IMG/VR virus record: IMGVR_UViG_3300043774_001557 | Direction: 5' to 3' (one strand) | DNA length: 64,000 nt | From: an uncultured virus (IMG/VR IMGVR_UViG_3300043774_001557) | Taxonomy: Duplodnaviria > Heunggongvirae > Uroviricota > Caudoviricetes | Part shown: positions 4,849 through 41,117 of the stretch, one piece after another | How positions within the stretch are numbered: position 1 is the first letter of the stretch | How the letters are laid out: each line of letters opens with the position of its first letter | Translations under genes and position numbers: made by a program | Notes under the pieces: generated by a model | What the model was told of the DNA's origin: nothing | The model's input: the letters and a program-made list of their open reading frames with translations, nothing else | Database searches by the model: none

Positions 4849-6477
4849 TCATGCGGCTTGCTTGTGAAGGGCCGTGCCGATGTGGCGTACCAGTGCGTCA
4901 CAGATCAGGTCGAAGTCGCTTTCGTGGTAGAGCTTTGCGGCCTTGTCCGTTGTGGCATGCTTGAAACCGAGCGTTGCCAATCCTTCGGCGGTCAGCGTGA
5001 TCGGCGACAAGCGCTCATTGATCTGGCCGAGTCGCAGCGTGGGGGCACTGGCCGGGGTCGTTCGCGAGACAACTGGACGGCCAGCAGGGATGGGCGAAGG
5101 GTCCGTCGGCCTCGCCATCGCCGTTTCGATGATCGGTTGCTCTGCTGCCGCTTGGGCGATAGCCTCGTCCGCTTTGCGCTTCGCTTCTTTCTCGTCCTCC
5201 TGCCGCTTGTGCTCAGCAATCCGCGCCGTCACTGCGAGCTCGAAATCGTCGGCTGGCTTCTGGATCAGCGCCTGAAGATCGCGGAACAGGAATGCATGCT
5301 CTGCGTGCGGCTTGTACCAGTCCAGTTTGGCGCGCAGATCCTTGGCGGCCGCATCGGCGGCGATCTTCCCATTTGCCAGCGCCGTGTCGAGCTTGTCGTA
5401 AAGGCTGGCGATCGTCTTCAGGCCCTTGATCGCGCCCACAAAGTCGGGCGTCGCAACAACGATCTCCACCGTCTTCAGTTCCGCGTTGATTGCTGCGACG
5501 TGCTCGGTGAACTTCCCGCGGCGCTCGGCGACCGCATTTTCCTTGATCTGCTTCTTGCGGCTCTCGACCAGCTTGTCGAGAGCGAGACGTTTGGTGCGAA
5601 GCTGCTCCCGGACGTGGTTGCCCGTGCGCATCAGTTCATCGACGCTGGCCATCTGCGCGATCGCGGCATCCATTGCAATCTCGATTTCCTTCTCGGCCCG
5701 CTCGCAGAATGTGACGGTGGCCGCCGCATTGACGAAGTCTTCGTCGGTCTGCAGGTCGGTCTTGATGCTGGCGATGTATTGCTCGGCCGCCGTGCGGAAC
5801 GCCGGCAGGTTGCTCGTGATGACTTCGCCGCGGATTTGGACGGCGAGCGCCGGCAATGCCATGATTGCGTCGGCTTTGGGCTTCTCGGGGATGACAATGG
5901 GCGCGTACTCGGCCAGATCCTTGCGAAACTGGCTCCAGCCATCAACGATGTTGTCGAACCAAGCCCGATTCGGTTTGATCTCCAAGCTCACCATGTTGTC
6001 GTCGGTGCCATCCGAGCAGGTGAAAATCAGGCGCTCAGCGCCAGTCACCATCAGCACCTGTTGGGCCTGCGGCATGTATTCGTCAGGCAACTCGCCGTGC
6101 TCAAGCGATTCGGCCAGTGCGGCGTTCCATTGTTTGTGCTCCCACGCCGTGCGCTCATCCATCGTGAGGCCATCACATGATGCCGAGATATCGCCGATGG
6201 ACATGGTGACGGGGTACAAGTCTTCGCCGAGGCTGGCCTCAATGTAGGGCCGCGCCAGCGCCTCCACTTCATGGCCGCGATCAAGGATGTGCTCTTGTAC
6301 CCAGTCGCTGAATTCCTTCGGCATGCTGGTGTGCTTCATGTGCAGCAATTCATTGCGCCTGACTTTCGGCGAGATTCCGAGCATCGCGGCGGCCTCACTT
6401 GCGCCGTGATGCGACAGGCGGAATTCGATCCAGGCGTCGGATCCCTGCACTAGATCATGAGTGATTCGTTCAGTCAT
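4849..6477 (-). CDS. YqaJ/lambda-exonuclease family protein with long coiled-coil C-terminus
   Basis: QGSDAW..R...GASE, RGHEVE, SASCDG, EHK, Y.PQ.QQ motifs. Confidence 0.9.
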   Translation of the reverse strand: MTERITHDLVQGSDAWIEFRLSHHGASEAAAMLGISPKVRRNELLHMKHTSMPKEFSDWVQEHILDRGHEVEALARPYIEASLGEDLYPVTMSIGDISASCDGLTMDERTAWEHKQWNAALAESLEHGELPDEYMPQAQQVLMVTGAERLIFTCSDGTDDNMVSLEIKPNRAWFDNIVDGWSQFRKDLAEYAPIVIPEKPKADAIMALPALAVQIRGEVITSNLPAFRTAAEQYIASIKTDLQTDEDFVNAAATVTFCERAEKEIEIAMDAAIAQMASVDELMRTGNHVREQLRTKRLALDKLVESRKKQIKENAVAERRGKFTEHVAAINAELKTVEIVVATPDFVGAIKGLKTIASLYDKLDTALANGKIAADAAAKDLRAKLDWYKPHAEHAFLFRDLQALIQKPADDFELAVTARIAEHKRQEDEKEAKRKADEAIAQAAAEQPIIETAMARPTDPSPIPAGRPVVSRTTPASAPTLRLGQINERLSPITLTAEGLATLGFKHATTDKAAKLYHESDFDLICDALVRHIGTALHKQAA

Positions 6478-23592: not shown

Positions 23593-23800
23593 AGCCCCCA
23601 GCCATCAGCAGCTCAGAGAGTATGCAGACGACCTGGAGGCGGGGCGGATCAAGGGGCTCGTCGTCTCTTACGTGAGAGATGACGGGGAAGTGGGATACAA
23701 GCTGATGGGGTCGCTTGCCAAGACGAGCAATCTTGGCAGCGCCATCGGGATCATTGGCGAATTGAAAAGGAGAGTTGAGCTCCTTTTTTCAGGCGCATGA
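23537..23800 (+). CDS. Hypothetical protein in immunity operon
   Basis: Open 87-codon frame following cI. Confidence 0.5.
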   Translation: MQQQAKAKVLPLFQGAANEAPSHQQLREYADDLEAGRIKGLVVSYVRDDGEVGYKLMGSLAKTSNLGSAIGIIGELKRRVELLFSGA

Positions 23801-23822
23801 TGCAAATACATTTGCAGAATGC

Positions 23823-23931
23823 TTGACTATGTGCGCCGTATGAACTAGGATTTGTGTAAGTTAGAGGTTGCTTTGCCAGTAGCCACGAGCATTCCCCAAG
23901 AGAGCCCGACAACGTTCGGGCTCTTATTGTT
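23823..23931 (+). promoter_or_regulatory. Putative late promoter plus early terminator (pR'/tR'-like)
   Basis: TTGACT-N17-TAGGAT (23823-23851), then AGAGCCCGA/TCGGGCTCT hairpin with T-rich tail. Confidence 0.65.
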
Positions 23932-24302
23932 TCAAGTTCTTAACTTTACCTCCATCCATGCACCAAAGTGTGGCTTTTATGTAGTGGATGCATAAAAGAA
24001 AACCCCACTCTGTGGTGGGGTCGCGTTTCCTCCGCCCGGCGCTGAGCATCCCCGTTCCACGCGACCCCTGCGCCGATTAAGGGGCCGCGCTCAGATTCTT
24101 CTGTTTGAGCCTTTGCGTGCCTGGTGCCATTTGGCGACGAGGCTTAGATGCGCGCGATTCGTCACTGACCATCTCCCAGCCGGGGAATCCGGCGAATCTG
24201 CTAATTAGCTTGCTGATGCGTGCGACTATAGATAAAGCATTAGCATAAAGCAAATATATTCGCCAATTGTGTGGCGCTAAGCACACACTGCCTCAAGCGA
24301 GG

Positions 24303-24981
24303 CGCTTCATCCAATCGCCGAAACTGCGGTCAGCGCCGTTGAACGCGAACACGCTTCGCACGGGTCGCGGCGATTGGATGAGGTGATCGGTTGCGTGCGC
24401 GCGGCCGACATGCTCTAGCCGGTGAGATGGCGAACCCCGGCGAATCTGTGCGCACAGAAGCTGACGGTGCCGGGAGGCACGCCGGAGAACGTAACCGGCT
24501 CCTTCACGCATGACGATCTAGGGCCTGCAATGTGGGGTAGAGCGGGCGGACTTTAGTGATGGCACACCCTAGTCGTCAGCCGTGAGGGACTACCACTTAC
24601 CCGAGAGGTCGGTGCGGCTTGTCCGTCTGGCGCTTGGGGCCCTCGACGATGTGACACCCCGCTAGCTGTGCGTAAGCGCTGGAGCGGTTGAAATGGTTGG
24701 GCCGTTCGCGTCACTGGGGCGGACACGACGCCGAAGGAATAATCGGCCGCTTGGCTGGCGTAACCAGCCTCTTCACTTCTGCCGGTGATGCGTCACAACC
24801 CCGAGGGGCGGCAGACGTGAGGGTGACAGCCCAAACCAACCTTTGATGTCCGTAGCGATCCCAGAACAATCCGCATACGTGCGGGCGCCGGGTAGAGGAC
24901 ATTGCTGCATGGATGCAGCTCCCAAGGTTTGGCCCCACGTAAGCCGTACGGGCTCATTAACCCGGCGCCGTGGTTCCCTCA
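24303..24981 (+). ncRNA. Array 2 of alternating hairpin and cassette RNA modules
   Basis: Hairpins 24303-24385, 24500-24589, 24770-24823; cassettes 24379-24506, 24582-24776, 24818-24981. Confidence 0.65.
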
Positions 24982-24989
24982 ATCCATTT

Positions 24990-25585
24990 GGATCGGTATG
25001 CGCTAAGGACGCGTCGGCTTAAGAATGAAATCGCCTGCTTCCATTCTTGACCTGAGCAAGAGAACCGTAACCAAGGTCATGAAGCGGCTGAACCTCGGCT
25101 GCTCAAACTGCGATTGGAATCTTGCTACCTGCGACATTCATCACATTCAGCCAAAGAGCAGGGGTGGAACTAATGATCACTCGAACCTTACTTATGTTTG
25201 CCCGAATTGCCATCGTCTGGCCCATGCTGGACTGCTGACAGCATTTGTCACCCTTGATCGGCAGATTGGCGATCGATGGAAGGACTGCTATTTCCCCGAG
25301 CGCGCAAAACGACAGTCTCGACCTTCTGACCATGCCAACCTCGGCAAATACATGGCCGAGAAGCGAGTGGTTGCAGACGAGCGAGCGCGAGTGGCCCTAG
25401 AAAGGCTAAAGACAAGTGGAATCGAATTCGGCAAGCGCGGATGGGTCAAGCGTGCATCGGTCGTCATTGGCATATCTCCGCAAAAGGTCGGTTGGTGGTT
25501 TAAGAGGTATGCCCCAGAATTCCTAGAAGTTCACGATCGCTAAGTTGCTTCGGCTGGCTTGGTTCGATGCCAAGACGGTCCACCA
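24990..25585 (+). pseudogene. Split tRNA-like gene enclosing an HNH ORF
   Basis: 5' half GGATCGG..D-arm..TCGGCTT (24990-25020); 3' half GCTAAGTTGC..CTTGG-TTCGATG-CCAAG-ACGGTCC-A-CCA (25539-25585). Confidence 0.65.
25025..25543 (+). CDS. HNH endonuclease
   Basis: CSNC...DIHHIQPKSRGG.N...NL..VCPNCHR..H. Confidence 0.9.
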   Translation: MKSPASILDLSKRTVTKVMKRLNLGCSNCDWNLATCDIHHIQPKSRGGTNDHSNLTYVCPNCHRLAHAGLLTAFVTLDRQIGDRWKDCYFPERAKRQSRPSDHANLGKYMAEKRVVADERARVALERLKTSGIEFGKRGWVKRASVVIGISPQKVGWWFKRYAPEFLEVHDR

Positions 25586-25591
25586 GAACAC

Positions 25592-25682
25592 GGAAGAGTT
25601 AGCCGAATCGGCATAGCGGCAGCGGTCTTGAAAACCGAAGGCCCGAAAGGGTGTGTGAGTTCGAGTCCCACCTCTTCCGCCA
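25592..25682 (+). tRNA. tRNA-Ser(TGA), phage-encoded
   Basis: GGAAGAG/CTCTTCC-G-CCA; loop CT-TGA-AA; long variable arm. Confidence 0.92.
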
Positions 25683-25686
25683 GTTT

Positions 25687-25776
25687 GGAAGGTTGCCAGA
25701 GAGGCAATGGGTCGGCTTGCTAAGCCGTAGCCGGTGCGCGAGCGCCGCGTGCGTTCGATCCGCACACCTTCCGCCA
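25687..25776 (+). tRNA. tRNA-Ser(GCT), phage-encoded
   Basis: GGAAGGT/ACCTTCC-G-CCA; loop TT-GCT-AA; long variable arm. Confidence 0.9.
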
Positions 25777-26004
25777 TCCTCCCCTGCGCATCCGCGCATT
25801 TGGCCCGCGCTGAACGGGCCTTTTCTTACACGATATGCCCCGGCCGCAACGCACCACACCGGATGACGAGATCATCCCCAACAACGGTTGGGCATGCAGC
25901 GTCCTACTGCTCCTGTATGACCAGGACGGCGAAGACGAGGTGGTCGGGGAGATTGGGCGGGAGGGGTGGTTGCACACGGAGGCCGGCATGGGCGGCGACG
26001 CATC

Positions 26005-26175
26005 GTGAGCCGGACGGCCAAGGGCGGCAAAGGCCCGGGATTCGAATACTGGACCGCGCGCCCCGGCAATCGCTGCGGCGGCACGATCAGTCCGAACGGC
26101 GGGAAACACACCAAGAAGCGCACGCACAAGGCGGAGCGGCAGATTGGCCGTCGGGACGCGCGGGAGACGCAATGA
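26005..26175 (+). CDS. Small basic phage protein
   Basis: GTG start; SRT.KG.KGPG.EYW..RP...K..TH..ER; ATGA overlap. Confidence 0.5.
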   Translation: MSRTAKGGKGPGFEYWTARPGNRCGGTISPNGGKHTKKRTHKAERQIGRRDARETQ

Positions 26176-26474
26176 CGCAAGAACAGTTTCTGTACTGGCT
26201 GCAGGGCTTCGCCGAGCTGAGCGCCACGCCGCCGACCGCGGAGCAATGGAAGTCGATCCGCGAGCATCTGGCGCTGTGCTTCAAGAAGGTGACGCCACCG
26301 GTCCAGACCGGACTCGAGAAGGGAGCGCCTGACCCGATGGCCGGCAAGAGCGTCGAAGACTTCAGACGTGCCATGGAAGACTTGCGCAAGCATGGCGGTT
26401 CAGCATTGCCGCCATTTGATCGCGCGGGCATCCCCAACTGGCCCAATATCGACCGAGTAACCATCACATGCTGA
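26172..26474 (+). CDS. Phage hypothetical protein
   Basis: MT.EQF.YWLQGF.EL...P...QW..I..HL...F.KVTP. Confidence 0.7.
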   Translation: MTQEQFLYWLQGFAELSATPPTAEQWKSIREHLALCFKKVTPPVQTGLEKGAPDPMAGKSVEDFRRAMEDLRKHGGSALPPFDRAGIPNWPNIDRVTITC

Positions 26475-27416: not shown

Positions 27417-28079
27417 ATGTCTCGCAAAAGGCGCGATCCTGAGGTGGAGGCCTTCGCGCGGCGCCCTCGGCCGCCCGGCGCTCTATTCGATGCTGAAAAT
27501 TGGTTTCGGCGCTTCATGCCGGCTGATGGTGTGGCCGAATGGGTTGAAGCCTGCCTGATGCGCGAAGGCTCCCCGCTCCATAACGCCGATCACCAGCATC
27601 TAAGGGACGCCGACATCGCCTACCTTTGGGCGAACCAGCAGAACACGAGCAAGATGCGCCGCGTCGTCGGCCAGTGCGAGGAAGTGACGTTTCGTTCCGG
27701 TGCGTGGCAGAAAGGGCGCCAAGAGCAGCAGATGGAAGAGTGGTTCGGGCGTGTCCCAACCTACCTCATTACGTTTGATGCGCGGTACGCCGCAGAGTGC
27801 TCCGATCTGGAGTGGTGCGCGCTTGTGGAGCATGAGCTTTACCACATAGCCCAGCGCACGGATGAATTCGGGGCGCCGGCCTTCACCCAGGATGGGTATC
27901 CCAAGTTGGGGCTGCGCGGGCACGACGTGGAAGAGTTCGTCGGCATTGTCAGGCGCTATGGCGCGGGTGCCGGTGCAGGCGATACGGCCAAGTTGGTTGC
28001 CGCCGCGCAGAGGGATCCAGAAATTGGGGCGCTCAACATCGCACAGGCTTGTGGGACGTGCCTACTGAGGGCCGCGTAG
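27417..28079 (+). CDS. Putative phage metallopeptidase
   Basis: HELYH (HExxH) and HDVEEF motifs. Confidence 0.8.
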   Translation: MSRKRRDPEVEAFARRPRPPGALFDAENWFRRFMPADGVAEWVEACLMREGSPLHNADHQHLRDADIAYLWANQQNTSKMRRVVGQCEEVTFRSGAWQKGRQEQQMEEWFGRVPTYLITFDARYAAECSDLEWCALVEHELYHIAQRTDEFGAPAFTQDGYPKLGLRGHDVEEFVGIVRRYGAGAGAGDTAKLVAAAQRDPEIGALNIAQACGTCLLRAA

Positions 28080-28110: not shown

Positions 28111-28608
28111 ATGGCAACGCTCAATGATGACGTGAAGGCGTTCATCGTCCGGGCGCTGGCCTGCTTTGACGCCCCGACTGACGTTTGCCGTCAGGTGAAA
28201 GAGGAATTCGGCATCGAGGTCACGCGCCAGCAAGTCTCGGCGTATGACCCGAATCGGCGCATAGCGAAAGACCTCAGCGCAAAATGGCGTGCGGTTTTTG
28301 ATGAGACTCGAAAGAAGTTTCTCGACGACGTTTCGACCATCCCCATTGCCAACCAGGCGTTCCGTCTTCGCGCGTTGAATCGAATGTATGACCGTGTTCA
28401 AGGTCAGGGGAATATGGCGCTCGCCGCCCAACTCATTGAGCAGGCTGCCAAGGAATCGGGCGGGGCATTCACCAATCGCCGGGAGATGACCGGCAAGGAT
28501 GGGGCTCCACTGATCCCGCCCAAGAGCGCGCAGGACATGACTGATGACGAACTCGCCGCCTACATTGGAGCAAGCGGCGCAAGAGCTGTGGATTCGCCGC
28601 AGGGCTAG
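28111..28608 (+). CDS. terS: Terminase small subunit (DUF2280-like)
   Basis: FIVRALACFD.P, QQV..YDP, EQAAKE.GG.FTN; precedes terL. Confidence 0.85.
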   Translation: MATLNDDVKAFIVRALACFDAPTDVCRQVKEEFGIEVTRQQVSAYDPNRRIAKDLSAKWRAVFDETRKKFLDDVSTIPIANQAFRLRALNRMYDRVQGQGNMALAAQLIEQAAKESGGAFTNRREMTGKDGAPLIPPKSAQDMTDDELAAYIGASGARAVDSPQG

Positions 28609-30088
28609 AGAGGATGTTCTCTCGTACGCTCAAGCGATCGAGATTCCCGGCAAGCCCGCCGGCGAAGATCCGGACACCGAATTCTTCGAGCCCATCGAAA
28701 CCACGATGGCGCAACACCACCGCCTCATTCTTGAGACGATGGAGCGGGTCAGCAAGACTCCGCATGGGCGGGCGATGTTCTTCATGCCGCCCGGGAGCGC
28801 GAAGAGCACGTACGCATCAGTGGTGTTCCCGTCGCGCTATCTCGGTGCGGAGAAGAATCGCAAGGTCATTCTCGCCAGCTATGGCGACGACCTGGCTCGC
28901 AAGATGGGGCGCCGCACGCGCTCGATCATCAAGCAAAAGCGGTTCAAGGGGATCTACGGCTGCGAATTGACGACTGAATCGTCGGCCGCGCAAGAGTTCT
29001 CGCTGACAAACGGCAGCGAGTACATCGCGACCGGCATTCTGGGCGGGGTCACTGGTAACCGCGCCAACGGGATCATCATCGATGATCCGGTGAAGGGCCG
29101 CGAACAGGCGGATTCGCCGACGATCCGTGACAAGACGTGGGATGCCTATAACGACGACCTGAAGACACGCCTGATTCCTGGCGGGTGGGTCGTTCTTATC
29201 CAGACGCGCTGGCACGAAGATGATCTAGCCGGCCGCATCCTTCCCGAAGACTGGAAGGGCGAAAGCGGCCCAATCCTGTGCCGCGACGGAAACGTCTGGG
29301 AAGTCGTCTGCCTGCAAGCGCGATGCGAGGTCCAGAACGACCCGCTCGGACGGAAGATCGGTGAGTACCTGTGGCCGCAGTGGTTCACAGAGAAACACTG
29401 GGCGCAGTTTCAGAACAACGTCCGCACGTGGGCGTCGCTCTATCAGCAGTTGCCGCGCCCGCTTGAGGGCACGCTGTTCAAGGTCGAAAACATGCTGGTC
29501 GATGGCCAGCCTGTTCCGATGCCGAATGGGTGCGATGTGGTCTTTGCGGTGATCGACTCGGCTTTGAAGGTAGGCGATAAGAACGATGGAACGGCCGTCA
29601 CGTATGTGGCGCGCAACAAGTTCTTTGGACATCCGTTGACCATCATTGACTGGGATATCACGCAGATCGAATCCGATTTGATTGCGGATTGGTTCCCGTC
29701 TGTCATTGCGCGACTCGTCGAGCTCGGGAAGCTGACAGGCGCCCGAATGGGCGTGATCGGCGCCTTCGTGGAAGACAAAGGAAGCGGCATCACTTTGCTT
29801 CAGCGCGCGACTCGCAATGGCTGGCCCGCTCATGCCATCGACAGCAAGCTCACCTCAATGAGCAAGGACGCTCGCGGGACGGGCGTGTCCGATTTCGTGC
29901 ATCACGGCAAAGTCAAGATCGCCGACCACGCCTACAACAAGGTTCTGGAATACAAGGGCCGCACCCAAAACCATCTGCTAACCCAAGTATTCGGATATCG
30001 CCTTGGCGTGCCGAACCAATCGGACGATTTGTACGACACGACGGTCTATAGCATCGCCATCGGATTGGGTGATTCGGAAGGACTGTAA
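28544..30088 (+). CDS. terL: Terminase large subunit
   Basis: MPPGSAKS Walker A, IIIDDP Walker B, QTRWHEDDL, nuclease acidic residues. Confidence 0.95.
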   Translation: MTNSPPTLEQAAQELWIRRRAREDVLSYAQAIEIPGKPAGEDPDTEFFEPIETTMAQHHRLILETMERVSKTPHGRAMFFMPPGSAKSTYASVVFPSRYLGAEKNRKVILASYGDDLARKMGRRTRSIIKQKRFKGIYGCELTTESSAAQEFSLTNGSEYIATGILGGVTGNRANGIIIDDPVKGREQADSPTIRDKTWDAYNDDLKTRLIPGGWVVLIQTRWHEDDLAGRILPEDWKGESGPILCRDGNVWEVVCLQARCEVQNDPLGRKIGEYLWPQWFTEKHWAQFQNNVRTWASLYQQLPRPLEGTLFKVENMLVDGQPVPMPNGCDVVFAVIDSALKVGDKNDGTAVTYVARNKFFGHPLTIIDWDITQIESDLIADWFPSVIARLVELGKLTGARMGVIGAFVEDKGSGITLLQRATRNGWPAHAIDSKLTSMSKDARGTGVSDFVHHGKVKIADHAYNKVLEYKGRTQNHLLTQVFGYRLGVPNQSDDLYDTTVYSIAIGLGDSEGL

Positions 30089-41027: not shown

Positions 41028-41034
41028 CGCTTAT

Positions 41035-41117
41035 CCGCGCCTAGGGTAGCTCCCGAAATCTGTTCCTTGGCAGGCTGGCGCGGGTTCTCAACAAGGATAT
41101 GACCATCAAGGAAAGTC
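41035..41117 (+). promoter_or_regulatory. Three-way-junction leader RNA, copy 2
   Basis: CCGCGCC-TAGG..CCGAAA-hairpin(loop TCCTTG)-GGCGCGG; CAAGGA at 41092 and 41107. Confidence 0.6.

Follow-up and report, generated by a model that had tools for sequence, protein, structure and literature searches.

Two pieces of a tRNA gene flank an open reading frame (ORF) for an HNH endonuclease at positions 24990-25585 of a 64,000-nucleotide stretch of DNA from an uncultured tailed phage (here, the window); the parts of this unit, through the terminator-like hairpin at 25802-25828, are on the plus strand. The left piece begins with the 5' acceptor strand GGATCGG (24990-24996), which is identical to positions 5418-5424 of the related phage L203; next come the dinucleotide TA and a 4-bp D arm (24999-25014). 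Positions 24997-25013, including the D arm, correspond to tRNA-Tyr positions 8-25 and are the last on the left with homology to alleles that lack the HNH gene (empty alleles). They are followed by a left junction remnant, TCGGCTTAAGA (25014-25024), a degenerate 5' strand of an anticodon stem with its loop, which ends 2 nt upstream of the ATG of the ORF. The right piece comprises the end of the 3' strand of the anticodon stem together with a long variable arm containing a GC-TTCG-GC hairpin (25543-25557), as delimited by blastn and alignment A2; a canonical T arm, CTTGG TTCGATG CCAAG (25558-25574), the stem of which is the same in the HNH-free locus L216 and is CTAGG/CCTAG in L203, a compensatory pair relative to the window; and the 3' acceptor strand ACGGTCC with the discriminator A73 and an encoded CCA end (25575-25585), as read from the sequence and its alignments to the empty alleles. 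Six pairs, one of which is T4.G69, form between GGATCG at 24990-24995 and CGGTCC at 25576-25581; A25582 and CCA at 25583-25585 follow. Six of the seven acceptor positions are thus paired; the remaining position, 7:66, is G/A in the window and G/G in HNH-free L203, arguing that this mismatch characterises the lineage and did not arise by decay. Our reading of 24700-26000 bears out the acceptor pairing, D arm, and T arm that were noticed in a previous inspection of the DNA (the sequence-only reading).

ARAGORN did not call the split gene, including when introns of up to 700 nt were allowed, and Rfam at E ≤ 10 gave neither a tRNA nor an intron match there. When every combination of a left end in 25005-25045 and a right end in 25515-25565 was joined in silico and run through ARAGORN (n = 2,091), a single join passed at the default threshold, as against 371 at 90% stringency; among the matches listed, all started at 24990. 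The outer frame is tRNA-like, yet none of the joins gives a convincing anticodon arm. The above-chance tRNA likeness of both pieces is shown by their homology to the sequences described below and not by tRNA finders.

The ORF (25025-25543; 172 amino acids [aa]) separates the tRNA piece at 24990-25013 from that at 25543-25585. That the ORF between the halves is of the HNH type was confirmed by a match to Pfam PF01844 (E = 6.5e-10). Many PHROG HNH families match as well, and there was no GIY-YIG domain among the Pfam and PHROG family matches, which were of the HNH type only. A phmmer-type search returned 125 homologues, the closest being P0002 (64%) and P0003 (58%). The protein consists of an N-terminal HNH core and a conserved helical C-terminal domain. 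The beta-beta-alpha metal nuclease motif is present, including the invariant catalytic and zinc residues, and C26, C29, D37, H39, H40, N54, C59, C62, H63, and H67 are invariant across 21 sequences (alignment A1). The ORF is conserved as a protein over its full length, with the C-terminal half conserved in 21 full-length homologues. The AlphaFold model has a pLDDT of 89; in a fold search with this model, PDB matches were only to HNH cores, the best being McrA (E = 8e-3).

Two intact tRNA genes, tRNA-Ser(TGA) (25592-25682; Rfam, 32.8 bits) and tRNA-Ser(GCT) (25687-25776; Rfam, 46.8 bits), both called by ARAGORN, lie downstream. A terminator-like hairpin with a T tract (25802-25828), the product of a consensus scan only, closes the tRNA/HNH unit. 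This hairpin suggests a single transcription unit with the Ser genes, and the HNH ORF is probably co-transcribed with them up to the terminator at 25802. Upstream, the ~1.2 kb at 23800-24990 contains no ORF longer than 90 aa. Two islands in this region (24639-24825 and 24890-24987) are conserved at 77-91% relative to the related loci L172, L173, and L209, while the remainder diverges. Rfam gave a weak, sub-threshold match to DUF3085-RNA (24732-24807; 17.5 bits), and the fold z-score of 24630-24990 is -0.6. Further downstream, an int-alpA RNA (41034-41096; plus strand) scores 46.6 bits, which exceeds the gathering score; its presence is consistent with an integrative element or prophage.

HNH-free relatives and the identity of the split gene

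We retrieved 49 related phage loci with the 220-aa protein encoded at 27417-28076, 2.4 kb downstream of the split gene. In L203, which has 66% identity to the window in this protein, ARAGORN calls a tRNA-Tyr(gta) gene at 5418-5501, followed by Ser(tga) and Ser(gct). L216 (Burkholderia sp. MAG), which was found using a degenerate pattern of the 3' piece, contains a Tyr-type sequence that is contiguous and lies 6 nt ahead of the same Ser(TGA)/Ser(GCT) pair; this Tyr-type copy has an acceptor mismatch and was not called by ARAGORN. For both loci, blastn homology resumes exactly at window position 25543 and continues through both Ser genes, with identities from 25543 of 80.8% (L203) and 88.2% (L216). 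The 3' piece (25543-25585) matches L203 in 38 of 43 columns and L216 in 40 of 43, and the 5' piece (24990-25013) is identical to positions 1-25 of the L203 tRNA-Tyr gene in 23 of 25 columns, with one gap and one mismatch. In the window, 25014-25542 (529 nt) replaces 16 nt of the empty alleles that comprise most of the anticodon stem and the GTA loop.

Because a contiguous class II tRNA is present at the same spot in L203 and L216, we conclude from sequence comparison that the split gene is a tRNA-Tyr gene of class II with A73. Its acceptor stem, D arm, long variable arm, T arm, and A73 are homologous to those of the called tRNA-Tyr gene of L203. The sequence-only reading had compared the gene to tRNA-Ser while noting that A73 and the variable region are not Ser-like; its identity as tRNA-Tyr(GTA) accounts for both features. 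The HNH-free alleles that this reading had proposed as a check exist and have a contiguous tRNA, an outcome that favours a disrupted tRNA gene; the left insertion point fits three alignments (see below). Other parts of the reading did not hold. The interruption of the anticodon loop is not a clean one, in that the anticodon and other parts of its arm, 16 nt in all, are absent. A GTA anticodon in a 7-nt loop with a 5-bp stem is absent from both window pieces, which argues for a disrupted gene and not a functional tRNA-Tyr. Moreover, the Ser(GCT) gene, which had been regarded as a possible backup, also follows tRNA-Tyr in the empty alleles and is, therefore, an ordinary neighbour.

The resemblance of the junction to tRNA-Ser(GCT) had been deduced by joining 25020 to 25539. 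The 14-mer obtained in this way is identical to 25712-25725 of tRNA-Ser(GCT), but it exists only after the chosen join. The match is largely explained by the GTCGG stem that makes up its left half, which is also found in an orphan Tyr half at L089, the closest HNH locus, and by the near-universal C32-U33. We therefore rejected the Ser(GCT) likeness of the junction; with the 16 nt including the anticodon missing, the joined product has no support as a functional tRNA.

The two halves show no decay: all stems pair, the CCA end is kept, and there are five window-specific changes. Their similarity to the empty alleles is on par with that of the neighbouring tRNA-Ser genes (81-88% over the whole blastn match). 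With only five such changes, recency of the event and constraint on the sequence are inseparable.

The HNH gene is sporadic. Of 39 related loci that extend 2.5 kb or more upstream of the shared 220-aa gene, one was found by tblastn to have it, and that locus is identical to the window. Accordingly, this is a presence/absence polymorphism at a single locus, of which the empty alleles (L203 and L216) keep an intact target. By ARAGORN, the 64-kb window has three tRNA genes (Leu, Ser, and Ser) and no spare tRNA-Tyr, arguing that the phage has lost its tRNA-Tyr gene. The same slot upstream of the 220-aa gene holds different tRNA sets across L172, L173, L179, L184, L198, and L203 (Gly-Met; Tyr; Thr-Phe-Ser; Thr-Ser-Ser-Met; Ile; Tyr-Ser-Ser) and behaves as a tRNA cassette hotspot. 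In HNH-free relatives, tRNA-like fragments consisting of an acceptor strand and D arm fused to a T arm, without an anticodon arm, are located upstream of the slot (L216, ~1129-1185; L173, ~5120-5240).

When viral contigs were scanned for exact patterns of either tRNA half, only the identical contig was returned, and record G001 is identical to the window over 24300-26300. Matches by blastn against phage sequences in GenBank were confined to the tRNA-Ser genes. The allele is found at full identity in sequencing runs of many studies, so the cost of the insertion, if it is costly, is small. Runs in which 24900-25700 is found at full identity are labelled as metagenomes of soil, permafrost, sediment, groundwater, and leaf or as isolates; 16 of the 24 runs listed contain every sampled word of it, and 14 studies contributed the runs with this stretch. 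Its carrier is either very widespread or a recurrent contaminant. Two runs rated as probably DNA (X17 and X18) cover the stretch in full, differing at one position (25519 A>T). In two metatranscriptome runs from one study, contigs begin only at 25493 or 25507 and have no bearing on splicing or transcription. The loose end of one contig, which maps to 26108-26135 on the other strand, was rejected as a fold-back assembly artefact.

The HNH family at phage tRNA-Tyr genes

We fetched 80 viral and 80 metagenomic loci for homologues of the ORF and located the HNH ORF in 158 of 166 loci (8 without). Leaving out the window's own entry gave 157 loci, and merging identical ORFs gave 123. An ARAGORN-called tRNA gene lies within 150 nt of the HNH ORF in 74 of these 123 loci, and a tRNA-Tyr gene does so in 42 (27 downstream only, 11 upstream only, and 4 on both sides). 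Tyr accounts for 45 of the 94 nearest-neighbour tRNAs compared with 51 of all 511 tRNAs in these loci. Thus, the HNH family adjoins phage tRNA-Tyr genes far more often than expected by chance. We relied on the ARAGORN counts because an nhmmer profile built from 52 tRNA-Tyr genes was contaminated by other class II tRNAs, also matching tRNA-Ser and tRNA-Leu, and gave only rough fragment counts.

Most homologues adjoin an intact tRNA-Tyr gene without a matching half on the opposite side, and the retained fragments vary by locus. In many loci, the HNH stop codon is a few bases from, or inside, the 5' half of the intact tRNA-Tyr. Orphan Tyr 5' halves that end at the anticodon loop, CTGTAA(A), immediately before the start codon are present in L013, L020, L028, L050, and L089, and orphan pieces consisting of T arm, acceptor strand, and CCA touch the stop codon in L013, L018, L072, L103, L121, L161, and L094. 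In L003, an AT-rich phage, a Tyr gene with a perfect 7-bp acceptor stem across the HNH gene is split at the variable arm; in L013, the gene is broken after position 38 and again ahead of the T arm. In L050, the ORF and a complete variant tRNA-Tyr travel together inside an older split tRNA-Tyr. The variation of the breakpoints among lineages fits repeated invasion with imprecise repair and not a conserved splice site.

Several further observations were made at these loci. In many of them (e.g., L029, L032, L020, and L089), the HNH ORF extends 20-57 nt into the downstream intact tRNA-Tyr, such that RNase P processing would remove the end of the message, including the stop codon. In L020, the stop codon is the TAA of an anticodon loop. 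A direct repeat of ~70 nt, which joins the final ~30 nt of the HNH ORF to the 5' half of tRNA-Tyr as far as CTGTAA, occurs once upstream of the ORF (~1100-1180) and once at the ORF end (~1747-1818). This repeat resembles the segB/tRNA-Tyr recombination joint reported for phage T6 (PMC13096335). Immediately after the HNH ORF, L050 (~1765-1845), L090 (~1903-1987), and L095 (~2062-2142) have tRNA-Tyr-like genes that ARAGORN misses and that have the unusual T loop ATCGTTA or ATCGACA instead of TTCGAAT; these genes may be cleavage-immune or defence-resistant spares. Finally, Rfam matches in tRNA clusters at these loci include a group I intron in L164 (2127-2323; 50.4 bits), a GOLLD RNA in L121 (2796-3232; 160.9 bits), and a skipping-rope RNA in L013 (2790-2870; 49.7 bits).

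Homing into tRNA-Tyr and the competing readings

Together, the empty alleles, the sporadic occurrence of the gene, and the lack of an intron support the first of the alternatives in the sequence-only reading, namely, an intron-less homing endonuclease that disrupted a tRNA gene. In our interpretation, a free-standing HNH homing endonuclease gene without an intron has probably invaded and inactivated a phage tRNA-Tyr(GTA) gene, and the tRNA-like sequence at either end is most likely what remains of the broken gene rather than part of an intron or of a new kind of RNA. By analogy to SegB, the HNH enzyme would recognise the conserved tRNA-Tyr DNA of HNH-less phages. We speculate that it nicks or cuts this DNA in or near the anticodon arm during co-infection and that repair from the HNH-bearing genome then copies the HNH gene in, i.e., homing. 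The outcome at this locus would be a dead tRNA-Tyr gene, the ends of which may still be tRNA-like because the event was recent or drift is slow.

The left junction (25014-25024) is compatible with three competing alignments, i.e., a resident stem with a 5-nt deletion, a cassette border of the L089 type, and a Ser(GCT) stem; with gaps, the remnant aligns to the stem and loop of L203 and also to the L089 orphan Tyr half. Two insertion routes can be envisioned. The HNH gene may have been inserted directly with loss of the anticodon arm. Alternatively, a cassette comprising an orphan 5' half, the HNH gene, and a spare tRNA-Tyr, as in L089, L020, and L050, may have inserted, and a later deletion may have taken the C-terminal tail of the ORF and the 5' half of the spare, thereby fusing the ORF to the variable arm. 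Based on the homologue alignment, the window ORF stops 10-25 codons before its full-length relatives, which makes the two-step history plausible; both routes fit. An att duplication made by an integrase was rejected, given that the 529-nt insert consists of nothing besides the HNH ORF.

A functional role of the tRNA-like ends, the second of the alternatives in the sequence-only reading, appears improbable. According to this alternative, RNase P would cut at 24990 and the encoded CCA would end the RNA at 25585, generating a ~596-nt HNH mRNA closed by the acceptor stem, D arm, and T arm, in which a coding part of ~520 nt replaces the anticodon arm in a tmRNA-like layout; the ends would then stabilise the endonuclease message or control its translation. 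All elements that such a closure would use are intact and pairable, the ends pair in the minimum free energy and centroid folds, comparison with the empty alleles reveals no visible decay of the halves, and the 7-bp acceptor stem of L003 is perfect across the HNH gene. However, the trait is not conserved in the HNH family, in which the retained fragments differ by locus, ARAGORN finds no tmRNA, and the G3:U70 pair of a tRNA-Ala-like domain is lacking, the pair at 3:70 being A3-T70. If true, such a closure would link a selfish nuclease, through its expression or stability, to the tRNA-processing machinery of its host, in a design born from a homing event.

We consider it very unlikely that the insert is a true intron, whether of group I or of a novel kind, whose splicing would yield a working tRNA. 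Joining 25020 to 25539 would give the anticodon GCT in a Tyr body, with a 7-nt loop, U33, and a purine at position 37; the stop codon is at the junction, and the layout of an ORF within a tRNA gene recurs among loci. Several lines of evidence argue against splicing. First, there is no Rfam match to RF00028 (E ≤ 10) in 24400-26200; the 599-nt RNA folds no better than shuffled sequences (z = 0.07); the ORF is conserved as protein through its C-terminal half and gives a confident AlphaFold model; and only 11 bases within the replaced segment are non-coding, in agreement with the earlier remark that the ORF fills the insert and leaves no room for a group I core. Second, the exons lack an anticodon, as the 16 nt with GTA are missing compared with L203 and L216, and the proposed stem has two G-C pairs, two G.U pairs, and one mismatch and consumes the base of the variable arm. 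Third, ARAGORN rejects the gene with introns allowed and, at its default threshold, accepts only one join out of 2,091. Fourth, the breakpoints vary between loci, as described above for L013 and L003, unlike those of a precise intron. Among 20 homologue loci, Rfam detected no group I model enclosing the HNH gene; the one in L164 is 350 nt downstream of the HNH ORF and does not enclose it. No contigs joining across the insert were found in the runs examined, which are uninformative on splicing. Based on Rfam, ARAGORN, the fold z-score, and the homologue loci, the HNH gene is not enclosed by a self-splicing intron or an intein.

Lastly, HNH-terminase partnerships exist in some phages, and small and large terminase-like ORFs, which we take to be terminase genes, lie ~3 kb downstream (28111-30088), but it is extremely unlikely that the HNH protein is a packaging-associated partner of the phage terminase with an incidental position in the tRNA gene, since 38 of the 39 related phages with the same downstream genes are HNH-free and the homologues track tRNA-Tyr genes and not terminases.

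Comparison with known systems

Homing endonuclease genes usually spare their host by residing in self-splicing introns, inteins, or intergenic sites. The locus described here, with its clean empty alleles, would be a homing gene seated within an RNA gene, where no mechanism restores the interrupted sequence.

The closest parallel to the homing reading is SegB of phages T4 and T6. The SegB recognition site in T4 is described as containing the tRNA T-psi-C motif, and SegB is described as homing within the tRNA cluster and driving the inheritance of the T4 tRNA region (PMC2330249). As in the window, a free-standing nuclease gene is located in a phage tRNA cluster; the SegB target includes tRNA gene sequence (PMC2330249), as that of the window enzyme would. 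Similarly, SegB is described as missing from close relatives and as adjoining tRNA-Tyr in T6 (PMC13096335). SegB lies between tRNA genes with no isotype preference (PMC13096335), whereas the HNH family of the window prefers tRNA-Tyr. SegB is a GIY-YIG enzyme and the window enzyme is of the HNH type; hence, the latter would be SegB-like in its working and is not a member of that family. Moreover, the segB gene is between tRNAs, whereas the HNH gene of the window is inside a tRNA gene from which the anticodon arm has been removed.

The mobE gene of phage Aeh1 is reportedly a free-standing HNH gene that lies within a protein-coding gene. The window gene is similar to this type in being an intron-less, selfish HNH gene able to split a host gene; in contrast to Aeh1, the gene that is split is an RNA gene that has lost an essential part, and retained function is unlikely. 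Group I introns are found in the anticodon loops of bacterial tRNA genes, and phages have intron-encoded HNH enzymes. With these introns, the window shares an insertion in the anticodon region and an HNH ORF inside the insert; however, it has neither a ribozyme core nor space for one, and its exons restore no tRNA.

Phage tRNA-Tyr genes were recently shown to counteract defences that cleave tRNA, and they act against PtuAB/Septu and retron Eco7 (PMC11555353, PMC13096335). This counter-defence role would make tRNA-Tyr common in unrelated phages and, thus, a good homing target. In contrast to phages that supply a tRNA-Tyr against these defences, the window has a tRNA-Tyr gene that is destroyed. 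A nuclease family that spreads through tRNA-Tyr genes, duplicating or destroying them, could shape which phages keep this counter-defence. Our literature search brought up no account of an HNH family specific to tRNA-Tyr, nor of tRNA genes interrupted by an endonuclease gene alone. Altogether, free-standing homing endonucleases in phage tRNA clusters and HNH genes embedded in protein genes are known; the present case stands apart by an HNH family that strongly prefers tRNA-Tyr and by a tRNA gene that is split without an intron.
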